In this document: in pieces, positions 11,262 through 16,062 of the stretch
How the letters are laid out: each line of letters opens with the position of its first letter
Position numbering within the stretch: the stretch's first letter is position 1
Notes under the pieces: generated by a model
Told to the model about the DNA's origin: nothing
The model's input: only the letters and a program-made list of their open reading frames with translations
Database searches by the model: none
Source of the DNA: an uncultured Thermococci archaeon
Lineage (GTDB): Archaea; Methanobacteriota_B; Thermococci; Methanofastidiosales; B48-G16
NCBI GenBank assembly: GCA_964595645.1
Contig: CAZQQT010000003.1
Coordinates: 157,636 to 221,635, forward strand
Direction: 5' to 3'
Length of the DNA: 64,000 bases
Program-made: the position numbers and the translations under genes

Positions 11262-12269
11262 GTGTCGCAGGTGACGCAACTACGTCAAACTAAGGAGAAA
11301 GAGGTAAAAATCACAGTGATAGACTACGATGAAAATCAATCCAAGGAGAAAGAGATAGCGAACATCAAAGAATGTTTCCCGTTCAAAGAGACTCCTACAG
11401 TTACGTGGATAAATATTGATGGGATTGCTCCCTCTATCATTGAAACATTAGGGAGTCATTTTGAACTTCATCCGCTCATTCTTGAGGATATCACAACCTC
11501 TCAACGTCCGAAGATAGAAGAGTCGGAAAACTACATTTTTATCATCGTGAAAATGCTTCATGAAGAGGACAGTGAGCTACAAATAGAACAAGTGAGTATC
11601 ATTCTCGGTCCAACTTTTGTCATTTCTTTTCAAGAGGGAGAAGGGGATATCTTCGATGGAATAAGAGAGAGAATTACGCATAAAAAGGGCCGTATACGGA
11701 GTAGAGGTGCAGATTATCTCGCATACAGCTTAGTAGATGCTATCGTAGATAACTATTTCGTGCTCCTGGAACATGTGGGAGAGAAAATAGAGGATTTAGA
11801 GGAAGAGTTGGTAGGGGATCCATCACCCAAAACGCTTCACCGTATCCACGCTCTAAAACGTGAGATACTTTTCCTCCGAAAATCAGTATGGCCTCTACGA
11901 GAAGTTATCAGTAGATTGGAGCGGATAGAATCATCCCTTATCCAGGAATCAACAGAGATATACTTTAGAGACGTGTATGAACATACCATCCAGGTCATTG
12001 ACACAGTAGAAACGCACAGGGACATGCTTTCTGGAATGCTTGATATCTATCTTTCCAGCGTGAGCAATAAGATGAACGAAGTTATGAAAGTACTCACTAT
12101 TTTCGCGTCGATATTCATCCCTCTGACATTCATTGCTGGTATTTATGGAATGAACTTCCAGTATATGCCTGAATTAGCGTGGCGCTGGGGATATTACGTC
12201 GTGCTCTTGGGGATGGGAATAGTTATTGCGGTAATGCTCGTATATTTCTGGCGGAAGGACTGGTTGTGA
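11262..12269 (+). CDS. corA: Magnesium/cobalt transporter CorA
   Basis: WINIDG, HPLILEDI, QRPKIE, MNEVMKVLT, GIYGMNF, MPEL. N-terminus short and start uncertain. Confidence 0.94.
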   Translation: MSQVTQLRQTKEKEVKITVIDYDENQSKEKEIANIKECFPFKETPTVTWINIDGIAPSIIETLGSHFELHPLILEDITTSQRPKIEESENYIFIIVKMLHEEDSELQIEQVSIILGPTFVISFQEGEGDIFDGIRERITHKKGRIRSRGADYLAYSLVDAIVDNYFVLLEHVGEKIEDLEEELVGDPSPKTLHRIHALKREILFLRKSVWPLREVISRLERIESSLIQESTEIYFRDVYEHTIQVIDTVETHRDMLSGMLDIYLSSVSNKMNEVMKVLTIFASIFIPLTFIAGIYGMNFQYMPELAWRWGYYVVLLGMGIVIAVMLVYFWRKDWL

Positions 12270-12275
12270 ACACTA

Positions 12276-12492
12276 TTACCATTGAAGCTCAATCGCATCC
12301 ACGGGGCAGCTCTCGGCAGCCTTCTCCACACACTCTGATTCGTCGGGCACTTCTCCCGTATGAGCGTTCTCCTGCTGATACTCTTCAACTAATACTGATT
12401 TCCCTTCAGCATTCTCTTCAAATACGTAGGGACACAGTCTGTAACATACCACATGCAATACACGTATCCTCATCTATCATTACTTTTACCAT
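12276..12492 (-). pseudogene. Monocluster ferredoxin, frameshifted
   Basis: ATG at 12492 reads MVKVMIDEDTCIACG; the continuation CYRLCPYVFE...AAESCPVDAI is in another frame. About 2 nt are missing near 12445. Confidence 0.85.
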
Positions 12493-12515
12493 CTTTTCAC
12501 CTTTTACAATTTAAT

Positions 12516-13426
12516 TTAATGTTTCCAATCCACGTATTTTTCCCCTCGTAACTCAGCGATGAGATTTAACGCTGCCTTTGCTCCTTCTCCCACCGCAGCA
12601 CCGATTTGTCTCACCTTGCCGGTACAATCGCCGGCCGCGTACACCCGTGGCACCTGCGTGTATTGGGTCTCGTCAACGACGAGTCGTCCGTCACGAATTG
12701 TGATTCCGAGAGCCCGAGCGAAATCCAACGAGCCACTCGTCCCCTCTGCAATAATCAATCCTTCCATTTCTTTTACCCCTTCGTCAAACTTTACTCCCTG
12801 AAACATCTCATCGCCATATATACCTTTTATTCTATTTTTGTTTATGGGAATATTCCGTTTTTCTAACTGTTTTTGTAGGATTCCACTCACGTCTAAATCC
12901 TTACCATTCGTGTAAATTGTCACGCCCTGTGTGTATTCGTACAGTTCTATCGCTTCTTTTACAACAAGATCTTCAGAACCAAGTACTCCCACGGTTCTAT
13001 CTCGGAAGAGAGGAGCATCACAGGTCACACAGTAACTTACACCTTTTCCTTCATATGCTTCTATTTCATCTATTTGTGGTTTTTGTGTTGGATCCCCGGT
13101 GAGAGTATTAACGATCTGGCAATATACGCGTTCGTAGCAGTTTCAACTCTGTAATTCCCATTATCTATTTTAATTAAAAGTACCTTTTCTCTTTTTACTT
13201 CTGCACCAAATTTTTCTGCCTGTCTTTTTCCGCGTTGAAGTATCTCTTTCCCGGAAATTCCTTCTGGAAATCCAAAATAATTTTCTATCACCCTCACCTT
13301 TTCCAAAAGTTTATCCGGCTCATCCAATACCAGTGTATCAAAATCTGCTCTCGATGTATATATCGCTGCAGATAGACCTGCCGGGCCGCCTCCAATTATC
13401 ACTACATCGTATTTATTCTCACTCAT
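12516..13426 (-). pseudogene. trxB: Thioredoxin-reductase-like FAD oxidoreductase split by a 1-nt frameshift
   Basis: GGGPAGLSAA in the 5' ORF. Adding one A in the run at 13080-13084 gives HKKPQIDEIEAYEGKGVSYCVTCDAP...YAAGD. Confidence 0.85.
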
Positions 13427-13470
13427 CTCTATCGCTTTTTATTTTCAATACGTAGTTTGGGGCACAATGT

Positions 13471-14109
13471 TCATTCTTCCTCAAATATCACTACGACCTT
13501 TTCCACATCCCCCCGATGCTCGATTTTCTCGTGTATATCTTCTTTAATCGCATTGGCAAACTGGTGATCCTCGACAATGTCGATAGTAATCGTTACCGTT
13601 CCATCATCCACCGTTACCTCTTTGATCAGTTCTGTTCGAACGACATCCAGTCCTGTCATGGGGTTCATGACATGTCTGAGACGCTTTTTTACTACCTCCT
13701 CTGTTGTAGGCTCTCGTTCCGTTACGAGTCCATGTCGTTCCTCGTAATCCCGTATTGCCTCACGTAGCCCTTCCACCGCGAGTACAGAACAGTGTGCCTT
13801 TATTGACGGTAGACCTCCAAGTTCCTCAGATGCGTCCTGCCACGTGATCTTTTTTGCCTCGTCAATGGTCTTTCCCTTCGCCATTTCTGTGATGATTGAT
13901 CCTGTGGCAATATTCGACGCACAACCGTAGGACTCAAACTTGATATCTGTGATTTTATGTGTCTCCTCATCTACCTTAATGTACACAGATACCATATCAC
14001 CGCATGCAGGACTGCCTTCTTGGGCCTTTCCGTCAGGATCCTCCATTTTTCCTACATTTTTTGGATTTTTGAAATGCTCTATTACCGTCTCACTATATGG
14101 TGTCTTCAT
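13471..14109 (-). CDS. iscU: IscU/NifU Fe-S scaffold fused to a DUF59-like domain
   Basis: YSE.V.EHF.NP.NVG, SPACGD, GCAS, KAHC; C-terminal LRHVMNP.TGLDVV DUF59-like segment. Confidence 0.9.
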   Translation of the reverse strand: MKTPYSETVIEHFKNPKNVGKMEDPDGKAQEGSPACGDMVSVYIKVDEETHKITDIKFESYGCASNIATGSIITEMAKGKTIDEAKKITWQDASEELGGLPSIKAHCSVLAVEGLREAIRDYEERHGLVTEREPTTEEVVKKRLRHVMNPMTGLDVVRTELIKEVTVDDGTVTITIDIVEDHQFANAIKEDIHEKIEHRGDVEKVVVIFEEE

Positions 14110-14113
14110 ATAT

Positions 14114-15283
14114 TTATTCCTCCTTTCCTAATGGACTTATCTCCCTCAATCTCTCCACGATATCGGATACAGTGGTAACAACGATATCAACTTCATTCAT
14201 GGTGTTGAACCGCCCTAGCGTAAACCGTACCGAGCCATGAGCCCGTTCATGGTTCCCCCCGATGCCCATTATTACATGGCTCGCCTCAAGCGAGCGACTG
14301 AAACATGCTGAGCCGGTGCTGACCGCGACGCCTCGCATATCCATGTGAAGCGTAATAGATTCGCCTTCTACGTAATGGAACGTGATGTTCGCATTGTGCG
14401 GTACTCTCTGCTCTCTGGAACCGTTCAAGGTTACATCGGGGATCTCTGAGAGAATACGATCAATGAGATGATTCCTCATTTTCTCCAGTTTAGTGTTCTC
14501 TTTAGGTGTGACCAGCTCTACTGCTTTTGCGAACCCGATGGCGCCGGGAATATTCTCGAGTCCTCCCCGCGTATTGAACTCCTGGAATCCACCATCCATT
14601 ATCTTGGTGAGAGGCGCCCCTTCACGTACGTAGAGGCCTCCAATCCCCTTGGGGCCATGAATCGTATGTGCCGATACTGTTATCATATCTACTGGTATCT
14701 CCTGAACGTCTATAGGCACTCGTGTGAAGGTATGGGTCGCGTCCGTGTGGAACAACACGTTGTTTTCCTTGCATATCTCCGCGATCGTTTTGATATCCTG
14801 CAGCGTTCCTATTTCTTGGTTCGAGTGTTGTATAGACACGAGAATTGTCCTCTCCGTTATTGCATCATCCAGTTGATCGAGGTCCACGAACCCGTCACTG
14901 TCAACATTGAGCTGTGTCACCTCAAACCCTTCTTTCTCTAGTGTTTTCGCACTGTGGAGCACGGGGAAATCTTCTATTTTTGAGGTAATAATATGGGTTC
15001 CCTTTCTCTCTCCGAGTTTCTTAGCGACTCCTTTAAGTGCGAGGTTGCTGGATTCTGCAGAACCCGAGGTGAAGATGATCTCGTTCGGATCGGCACCGAG
15101 TGTTGTGGCAATTGTTCCCCGTGCACTGTCAAGACTTTCCTTGGCTTCGACACCCAACGAGTATCCAAACTCGGAGGTAGGTACCGTGTATGTATTGAAA
15201 AAGTACGGTTTCATCGCCTCGAGCACTCGTTCGTCCATTCTTGTGCTGGATGCATTGTCCATGTAAATAAAGTTGTCATCCAT
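14114..15283 (-). CDS. IscS/NifS-fold protein lacking the PLP-binding lysine (probable non-catalytic desulfurase homologue)
   Basis: YMDNASST, IIFTSG, NQEIGT.Q, STGSAC and GSVRF are present, but SAHTIHGPKG has K->T, EDFPV has H->D and RGGL has T->L. Confidence 0.9.
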   Translation of the reverse strand: MDDNFIYMDNASSTRMDERVLEAMKPYFFNTYTVPTSEFGYSLGVEAKESLDSARGTIATTLGADPNEIIFTSGSAESSNLALKGVAKKLGERKGTHIITSKIEDFPVLHSAKTLEKEGFEVTQLNVDSDGFVDLDQLDDAITERTILVSIQHSNQEIGTLQDIKTIAEICKENNVLFHTDATHTFTRVPIDVQEIPVDMITVSAHTIHGPKGIGGLYVREGAPLTKIMDGGFQEFNTRGGLENIPGAIGFAKAVELVTPKENTKLEKMRNHLIDRILSEIPDVTLNGSREQRVPHNANITFHYVEGESITLHMDMRGVAVSTGSACFSRSLEASHVIMGIGGNHERAHGSVRFTLGRFNTMNEVDIVVTTVSDIVERLREISPLGKEE

Positions 15284-15291
15284 CGTACCAC

Positions 15292-15714
15292 CTATGAGAT
15301 AAACAAGGTAATTTTAGACTCTCTCGCTTCTTTAATGTAGGTTCCTACTGCACAGTACTCGGTGATTATGTCATCACGCAGATCGTCCTTCTCAAGCCCC
15401 ATAATGTCCATGGTCATATCGCAGGCAAGTATCTTACCACCTAACTCTACGTAATCCTGTAACATCTCCTCCAGCGATCGCACATTCGCCTTCTTCATCC
15501 TCCGATTCAGTAGCCATTTTCCAAGGCCGAGGAAGTGCATTCGAGAGAGGGGTCCTTGCTCCAGCTGCCCCTTTTTGAGCCTTTCAAGTCCCCAGAATGT
15601 GAAGTACATCGATACATCCATGCCCATGGCAAGCGCACCATTGCCGATGATGAGGGCACTGTAGAGTTTGTCCATCTCACCACTCTGTACGATCAGCGTG
15701 ACCTTCTCTGTCAT
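15292..15714 (-). CDS. DsrE/DsrF/DrsH-like (DsrE2-type) sulfur carrier
   Basis: SG.MDK, GA.AMG..V.MYFTFWGL, ACDMTMDIMG, TLFI C-terminus. Confidence 0.9.
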   Translation of the reverse strand: MTEKVTLIVQSGEMDKLYSALIIGNGALAMGMDVSMYFTFWGLERLKKGQLEQGPLSRMHFLGLGKWLLNRRMKKANVRSLEEMLQDYVELGGKILACDMTMDIMGLEKDDLRDDIITEYCAVGTYIKEARESKITLFIS

Positions 15715-15715
15715 C

Positions 15716-15955
15716 TTACTCCTCCTCGGGAATCTTGATTGTGATTATCCACGTACCATTCTTCTCCTCGACGCTTACAAGCTCTAACCCAAGAGACTCC
15801 ACTGCCATAGGGATCTCCTTTTTGGATGCAGGGTGATCGCCGATGATCTCGACGATATCGCCAGGATTAGCCTTCCTCACAGCCTTCCGGGTTTCTACCA
15901 GCGGAACTGGACATGTCTCTCCTACCACTGTTATCTTTTTTTTCACAATTTTCAC
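15716..15955 (-). CDS. tusA: TusA-family sulfur carrier
   Basis: GETCPVP, G..VEI..DHPAS..EIP. Confidence 0.9.
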   Translation of the reverse strand: MKIVKKKITVVGETCPVPLVETRKAVRKANPGDIVEIIGDHPASKKEIPMAVESLGLELVSVEEKNGTWIITIKIPEEE

Positions 15956-16062
15956 CTATTCCTCTTCTATATTTATGTGCGTGCAATCTATATAAATTTT
16001 ATTCGTCGCTAAGTTAACTGATAAAAGAATAAGTTTTATATGCGTAGAAAAGAAGCTCCACT

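Follow-up and report, generated by a model that had tools for sequence, protein, structure and literature searches.

IscS Proteins with Altered PLP Sites

In Archaeoglobus fulgidus, an IscS devoid of desulfurase activity works together with IscU by contributing its Cys as a cluster ligand, as summarized by Deere et al. (2020, PMC7585200), and this protein, IscS2 (AF0564), is represented by PDB entries 4eb5, 4eb7, and 4hvk, besides its D199K variant 4r5f. In Methanosarcina acetivorans, the same paper described the isc1 cluster, where IscS1 (MA0808) carries the loop STGSACFS, IscU1 (MA0807) has a mass of 24.2 kDa, and the neighboring genes are MA0809 (“DrsE superfamily”) and MA0810 (“SirA-like”; Fig. 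S1 legend). The residues of IscS1 that bind pyridoxal phosphate (PLP) were found there not to be conserved, with the proposal that it may act like the A. fulgidus IscS, and MA0808 was detected in proteomes (PMC7585200). Here we describe a relative of these proteins, named IscS* (P0001), a PLP-site-less IscS/NifS paralogue encoded at 14114-15283 on the minus strand of a stretch of 64,000 nucleotides (“the window”; contig CAZQQT010000003.1 of assembly GCA_964595645.1) from an uncultured Thermococci archaeon of the Methanofastidiosales. IscS* has lost residues required for PLP chemistry and belongs to a widespread clade in which the replacement residues are themselves conserved and the gene forms part of a conserved four-gene cassette. 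Judged by its residues, it is very unlikely to be a PLP-dependent desulfurase, and most probably it is PLP-free.

The M. acetivorans isc1 cluster shares with the window its gene order, the loop motif STGSACFS, and an enlarged IscU, and in Methanosarcina loci an IscS* 69% identical to that of the window is flanked by genes for TusA, a DsrE2-like protein, and an IscU fused to a DUF59 domain (IscU::DUF59). For orthology, we asked for at least ~65% identity, the motifs IEDF, HTDATH, SAHT(I)HGP, and STGSACFS, and a single tight clade; the N-terminal sequence of IscS1 (supplement of PMC7585200) and its STGSACFS both match the clade consensus, and the clade is starred at 99 in the tree described below. 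The IscS* clade is, therefore, the family of M. acetivorans IscS1. In contrast to isc1, the window copy has a frameshifted tail of trxB-like and ferredoxin genes, and is without the HIT protein and the hypothetical neighbor. What is new with respect to PMC7585200, which left the cluster uncharacterized given that IscS1 was insoluble, is the spread of the module over Bacteria and Archaea and the invariance of the replacement residues; our literature search for the cassette, with incomplete journal coverage, found only this paper and none characterizing the module.

The A. fulgidus IscS2 resembles IscS* in having the IscS fold, no Schiff-base Lys, and a conserved loop Cys (STGSAC), and in pairing with IscU; its structure 4eb5 is also the best PDB match of the clade profile (E 1.6e-119). 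However, both the stacking His and the phosphate Thr are still present in IscS2, whose motifs are DATA, SSND, and RSGS, whereas the IscS* clade reads IEDF, DATH, SAHT, and R.G(L/I/V). In a FastTree tree of 155 rows, including the 150 nearest cluster representatives, the clade of the window forms a tight group (99, starred) inside a group of 15 proteins with degenerate PLP sites (97, starred), while the A. fulgidus-type representatives (P0145, P0227, P0232, and P0239) form their own clade (99, starred) beside canonical sequences. Common descent of IscS* with the A. fulgidus type was, thus, not recovered in this FastTree analysis, and IscS* would be an independent lineage.

A sequence-only reading made previously on this DNA had cited the A. 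fulgidus precedent, which is real, with SSND at the Lys position in 4eb5 and both the inactivity and the Cys ligand summarized in PMC7585200. It had also described IscS* as a further degenerated protein of that type, and this was not borne out, given the separate clade of the A. fulgidus type and the invariance of the replacement residues. That interpretation is, therefore, partly supported, being right in essence and in need of recasting as a conserved, remodeled, and independent lineage. It had taken in neither the cassette nor the canonical IscS-IscU pair encoded at another site of the genome, nor the published M. acetivorans IscS1.

The PLP Site of IscS*

The gene translates without interruption over 389 codons into a full-length IscS/NifS-type protein, with the class-V aminotransferase fold (PF00266) matching residues 6-367 through profile positions 1-370 of 371, at 236 bits against a cut-off of 21.5. 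We scored three NCBIfam desulfurase models (TIGR02006, TIGR03402, and NF010611), taking membership as a score at or above the curated equivalog cut-off, and the best matches were NifS and IscS cysteine desulfurases, all of them under their cut-offs: 452.1 vs. 530.75 bits for NifS, 398.8 vs. 643.2 for IscS, and 403.5 vs. 548 for NF010611. Canonical IscS/NifS proteins (E. coli 1p3w and 3lvl, and P0121 of the same genome) have the same fold and length, with 43–48% identity to IscS*, and share with it the type-I Cys loop, the substrate-carboxylate Arg, and the C-terminal IscU-binding helix.

In contrast with these canonical proteins, the PLP site of IscS* is replaced at one contact after another, as was mapped by aligning it with HMMER to active IscS proteins of solved structure, and to the E. 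coli protein. Asp105 (GAT, 14969-14971) is aligned to the PLP-stacking, acid-base His (E. coli His104; EH motif), His184 (CAT, 14732-14734) to the Gln bonding the O3' of PLP (E. coli Gln183; DA(V/A)Q), Thr207 (ACG, 14663-14665) to the Schiff-base Lys (E. coli Lys206; S(A/S)HK, with Lys, e.g., in 9wep), and Leu242 (14558-14560, within R239-G240-G241-L242, “RGGL”) to the phosphate Thr of R(A/S)GT from the partner subunit (Thr243'). Additionally, Gln156 occupies the place of the pocket Asn (E. coli Asn155), and Ala76 that of the phosphate Thr of GxTE, where the clade consensus is still Thr. On the other hand, IscS* keeps the pyridine-N Asp181 (Asp180 in E. coli), the substrate-carboxylate Arg353 (Arg354), and the mobile-loop Cys327 (Cys328), all three invariant in the clade, and its STGSAC loop (S322-C327, with the Cys327 codon at 14303-14305) is intact. 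In E. coli IscS, mutagenesis showed His104, Asp180, Gln183, Lys206, and Cys328 to be each indispensable for desulfurase activity (PMC9978102), and three of these five (His104, Gln183, and Lys206) are replaced in IscS*, by Asp105, His184, and Thr207.

The substitutions D105, DATH, T207, and RGGL, together with the intact STGSAC and reading frame, had been noticed in the sequence-only reading, and translation and alignment place all of them at the same codons; the alignments likewise bear out its central point that the PLP-contact residues were lost jointly while the Cys of the persulfide loop was kept. Two public runs of a single microbial-mat study, which may be the source data of the assembly, yielded contigs (depths of 35 and 66) that agree with the window at every position from 12150 to 16000. 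A sequencing error was ruled out by these identical contigs, with that reservation on their origin, and by the finding that the same residues are invariant, or almost so, in 81 orthologues.

A Conserved Clade in Anaerobic Bacteria and Archaea

Among 5.8 billion proteins searched, thousands matched at E < 1e-30, the best 120 being all 70–76% identical, and in an alignment of 37 of these 120, D105 and H184 are invariant and T207 nearly so. Thousands of homologues at 66–76% identity share the IscS* substitutions, and a local decay of the gene, which would have left Lys and His in all close homologues, is thereby refuted; SAHTIHGP, IEDF, and HTDATH mark a large conserved clade. By a pattern scan with one genome per species, a relative with an intact ORF was found in at least 529 species, anaerobes from both Bacteria and Archaea, the bacterial hosts including Dehalococcoidia, Anaerolineae, Thermodesulfovibrionales, Syntrophales, and Clostridia (Acetobacterium bakii), and the archaeal ones Methanosarcina, Methanothrix, Methanofastidiosum, Methanobacteriaceae, Thermoplasmata, Hadarchaeota, and Altiarchaeales. 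A library clustered at 50% identity retains of the clade hardly more than a single full-length representative, at 66% identity, and the proteins that follow it are at 52% or less.

A comparison was made between 81 orthologues and 116 canonical representatives, the latter being those whose key sites are H, D, Q, H, K, T, and C, and 23 positions were found to be fixed in the clade and unlike the canonical state. D105, F106, Q156, and H184 are present in 100% of the orthologues and T207 in 98%, vs. canonical H in 100% (site 105), N in 97% (156), Q in 100% (184), and K in 100% (207) of the representatives. Other sites of this kind are Q152 (canonical M), K227, H303, H313, F328, and R347, besides a two-residue insertion specific to the clade, E38-F39, ahead of helix α2. 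Given that the replacement residues are themselves invariant, the PLP site appears to have been remodeled under selection and not eroded.

The rate of change points in the same direction. The IscS* orthologues of five other genomes are 69–72% identical to the window copy, whereas the canonical IscS proteins of these five are only 54–55% identical to the canonical IscS of the window's genome; with an identity of 66–76% between the two domains, IscS* has, accordingly, changed at a slower pace than the active IscS proteins across the same genomes. This conservation indicates that the IscS* clade is under strong purifying selection: the slot of a desulfurase is held by a protein apparently incapable of PLP chemistry, yet more conserved than its active relatives. 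Within the clade, the tree follows the phyla fairly well, with about three changes of label between Bacteria and Archaea, and is compatible with one origin per domain; the wide distribution would, therefore, be mostly old or slow, with some transfer.

A Four-Gene Cassette

IscS* is encoded as the third gene of a cassette that runs on the minus strand from 15955 to 13471 in the order TusA, DsrE2-like protein, IscS*, and IscU::DUF59 (Table 1), with spacings of 1 base between the first two genes, 8 bases between the DsrE2-like gene and IscS*, and 4 nt between IscS* and IscU::DUF59. By tblastn, the same four genes were found, nearly always in the same order, in ~75 of 80 related loci from at least nine phyla, each cassette protein being 55–85% identical to that of the window. 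Clustering of all flanking open reading frames (ORFs) of the 80 loci gave no other neighbor common to more than nine of them. A fifth conserved ORF, seemingly present in 48 loci, was rejected as merely the antisense frame of tusA.

Table 1. Features of the IscS* locus, in positions of the window.
Feature	Position	Strand	Length	Evidence and remarks
TusA-family sulfur carrier, CPxP active-site Cys	15716..15955	-	79 aa	PF01206, E 5.5e-21
DsrE2-like protein, invariant Cys98 in AC.MT	15292..15714	-	140 aa	PF13686, E 2.1e-36
IscS* (P0001), PLP-site-less IscS/NifS paralogue	14114..15283	-	389 aa	PF00266, E 8.4e-70
IscU scaffold with C-terminal Cys-less DUF59 (FeS_assembly_P) fusion	13471..14109	-	212 aa	NifU_N, E 5.6e-44 (residues 5-126); FeS_assembly_P, E 3e-10 (residues 138-205)
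Thioredoxin-reductase-like flavoprotein	12516..13426	-		Split ORFs 13070-13426 and 12516-13028; TIGR01292 matches both halves
Small 4Fe-4S-type ferredoxin	12276..12514	-		Frameshifted in first Cys motif (CIACG...); three-frame translation

The active cysteines of all the partners are conserved. The TusA Cys, both Pro, and the motif PLVE.RKA are invariant in 24–25 orthologues, as are Cys98 of the DsrE2-like protein in 73 and C36, D38, C62, and C106 of IscU in 75. In E. coli, the contacts between IscS and IscU comprise α8 (309-316), Glu347, and the C-terminal helix 379-391 (PMC2854127), and the corresponding segments of the IscS* clade read as the invariant VEGES.TLH.DM, HERAHG, and LR.ISPL; IscS* also keeps the equivalents of the E. 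coli TusA-contact residues Glu49, Asp52, and Arg55. In a complex prediction for two copies of IscS* together with TusA and a DsrE2-like protein, the last of which was the partner being scored, the best score was 0.26 against a mark of 0.32, an outcome that speaks neither way on binding.

The E. coli IscS-TusA pair and the relays of sulfur oxidizers (DsrEFH, DsrE2, and DsrE3) resemble the cassette in the co-encoding of a CPxP TusA and a DsrE-fold protein with an active Cys. The DsrE2-like protein of the cassette differs, however, from curated DsrE2, its score for the NCBIfam DsrE2 model being far under the cut-off (69.5 vs. 210 bits).

A different context was observed in a small subclade of Anaerolineae (L009:2630-7352, L011, and L019), where IscS* occurs without TusA, DsrE2-like protein, or IscU, in the order nitroreductase, Crp regulator, rubrerythrin, ferredoxin, stand-alone DUF59, IscS*, glutaredoxin, and a ferredoxin:thioredoxin-reductase β-like protein fused to a rubredoxin-like domain. 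This variant suggests a direct partnership of IscS* with DUF59 and a link to oxidative stress or disulfide reduction. Moreover, in two loci of Anaerolineae/Anaerolineales, a ferritin-family gene lies between IscS* and IscU::DUF59 (L015:6206-6691 and L078:3421-3912). From the Anaerolineae contexts and these ferritin insertions, recurring links of IscS* to DUF59, thiol-disulfide reductases, and iron storage can be drawn.

Desulfurase Content of the Cassette Genomes

The genome of the window (1.97 Mb in 14 contigs, 99.96% complete) also contains a canonical IscS (P0121, with EH, DAVQ, SSHK, and RSGT), whose NifS score of 540.6 passes the cut-off, adjoined by an ordinary IscU (the pair at L001:1429-3113). 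No SufB/SufD/SmsB homologue was found in this genome with PF01458, a model that matches all 14 control genomes, archaea included. Fe-S (iron–sulfur) assembly seems to rest here on the canonical IscS-IscU and/or the cassette, which is unusual for an archaeon.

The distribution of IscS* within the order is patchy. In a related, neighboring genus, 12 of 15 genomes contain it, whereas the other member of the window's genus and the matching genomes of the same family (88–94% complete) have a canonical IscS only (46–48% identity) and no IscS*; one further genome of the same family gave no match at all. In four of the five genomes of the related genus that were examined (96–98% complete), IscS* is the only IscS/SufS-like protein, the remaining class-V matches being an aspartate/serine-glyoxylate-type aminotransferase and SepCysS. 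These four genomes have the full cassette and a SufB homologue, and given that the cassette is kept in the absence of a recognizable cysteine desulfurase, we argue that it works there independently of one.

The canonical gene may also lie very near the cassette. In the Dehalococcoidales bin10 chromosome (G001), a Lys-containing iscS (1356122-1357276) is only ~2 kb away from IscS* (1359261-1360412), and in L099 and L090 a canonical Lys-containing iscS is likewise ~2 kb from the cassette IscS*.

Proposed Role of IscS* and Alternative Explanations

We consider it probable, from the residues and the gene context, that IscS* is non-catalytic and serves as a persulfide arm and cluster ligand, bringing sulfur from a TusA/DsrE relay to IscU. 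IscS* would dock to IscU::DUF59 as IscS docks to IscU, most likely forming an (IscS*-IscU::DUF59)2 complex, with Cys327 as a swinging arm on which sulfane sulfur would arrive from TusA and/or the DsrE2-like protein in persulfide form, to be passed on to the scaffold cysteines of IscU. Cys327 may also supply a fourth ligand to the cluster as it forms, a role that the Cys has in the A. fulgidus IscS-IscU structure. Whereas E. coli sends sulfur from its PLP-active IscS to TusA, IscS* presumably cannot generate a persulfide, so that the flow would go toward or past it. The cassette would, thus, be an Fe-S assembly module whose sulfur is relay-borne, derived from sulfide, polysulfide, or thiosulfate, and not from PLP-dependent cysteine cleavage, with electrons coming from a thiol-disulfide reductase or a ferredoxin; genes of both kinds, thioredoxin-reductase-like and ferredoxin, are adjacent here and are frameshifted in this genome. 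For supplying sulfur to Fe-S assembly in strict anaerobes, methanogens included, that lack or do not use a desulfurase, the cassette would be a concrete and widespread candidate, and this proposal is directly testable in the genetically tractable Methanosarcina and with recombinant proteins.

Several points weigh against this proposal. The direction of sulfur flow in the cassette is assumed. Five other cassette genomes, from five lineages, each contain at least one canonical, Lys-containing IscS, and since the genome of the window has one as well, an ordinary desulfurase could be what loads the relay in these genomes. The four genomes free of a recognizable desulfurase are close relatives, all of them metagenome bins of one genus, and, not being independent, count as about one observation. 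The clade-invariant Lys227, near the GGxQE loop, may serve as an alternative Schiff-base residue. The sole biochemical attempt on the clade, with recombinant M. acetivorans IscS1, yielded inclusion bodies (PMC7585200), and no RNA run for this organism was found among the public sequencing runs searched.

Among the alternatives, the one that we take most seriously, while thinking it unlikely, is that IscS* only stabilizes IscU and supplies the Cys327 ligand in the manner of A. fulgidus, free sulfide entering the scaffold directly, with TusA and the DsrE2-like protein serving elsewhere, e.g., in buffering sulfur or in exporting it to other pathways for thio-cofactors. In the A. fulgidus IscS2-IscU structure, the Cys is indeed a ligand, the hosts are anaerobes of sulfidic habitats, and sulfide is able to feed minimal Fe-S systems; however, in ~75 of the 80 loci IscS* is inherited together with TusA and the DsrE2-like protein, with invariant active cysteines and tight spacing, which would be difficult to account for if their functions were unrelated, and A. 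fulgidus IscS2 is of a different lineage. Less probable in our opinion is a rebuilt pocket, in which the invariant D105, D181, H184, and H206, within reach of Cys327, would bind a metal or (poly)sulfide, making IscS* an entry point for iron or for inorganic sulfur/polysulfide, or an enzyme with new chemistry; some anaerobes would then assemble Fe-S clusters independently of cysteine, with this machine taking over from any cysteine desulfurase. The substitutions are indeed non-random, with Asp and His 100% fixed where His and Gln stood, the clade-specific His303 and His313 are invariant in the IscU-contact helix, and the two ferritin insertions between IscS* and IscU fit a role in iron entry. 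Nevertheless, Asp-His pairs could merely fill and stabilize an empty pocket, and the AlphaFold2 model made on the shallow clade alignment is of low confidence (mean pLDDT 58.7) and gives no pocket geometry.

We regard as very doubtful that IscS* binds PLP via another Lys and works as a weak or specialized desulfurase or as a selenocysteine lyase. Replacement has affected the stacking His, the Gln at O3', the Schiff-base Lys, the phosphate Thr acting in trans, and the Asn of the pocket all at once, and in E. coli IscS single changes at His104, Gln183, or Lys206 abolish activity (PMC9978102), even if the K206A mutant retains a trace of it (PMC9978102); the retention of Asp181, Ser204, His206, and Arg353, of Thr76 as the clade consensus, and of the clade-specific Lys227 speaks in favor of this alternative. 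As for a decaying pseudogene or a sequencing artefact, the frameshifts in the neighboring trxB-like and ferredoxin genes of this genome could have suggested it, and it is refuted, with hardly any doubt left, by the full-length frame, the identical contigs of the two runs, and the fixation of the residues in hundreds of genomes at ~70% identity.

The Frameshifted Downstream Genes

Downstream of the cassette, the thioredoxin-reductase-like gene is broken, as read from its frames, by a frameshift in an A5 run immediately before the CVTC redox motif, and in the three-frame translation of the ferredoxin MVKVMIDEDTCIACG appears in one frame, while a second frame reads C..LCPYVFEENAEGK...ESCPVDAIELQW. 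Both frameshifts are present in the contigs of the two public runs (depths 35 and 66), and because the same sequence occurs in both, they are probably real and not assembly errors. We had considered this tail of thioredoxin reductase and ferredoxin as a possible part of the conserved module, and rejected it given that none of the 80 related loci has a thioredoxin-reductase match beside the cassette; the thioredoxin-reductase-like gene is specific to the genome of the window and lies outside the conserved cassette.

Recurrent Loss of the Schiff-Base Lys among IscS-like Proteins

The loss of the Schiff-base Lys is not a peculiarity of the IscS* clade. It is absent in ~13% of the representatives (~20 of the 150 nearest 50%-identity clusters, P0122-P0271), where T, L, D, M, P, G, A, S, R, or Q is found in its place, and nearly all of the full-length Lys-less representatives keep the loop Cys. 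In the 155-row FastTree tree, the starred branches force at least four changes of the Lys state. A converse case is P0129, where the Lys is still present but neither the stacking His nor the phosphate Thr remains. IscS-like proteins of a non-catalytic kind seem to be common and to be annotated as cysteine desulfurases, and since the Lys loss is recurrent (~13%, with at least four origins), the automatic label of “cysteine desulfurase” would often be wrong for IscS-like proteins.

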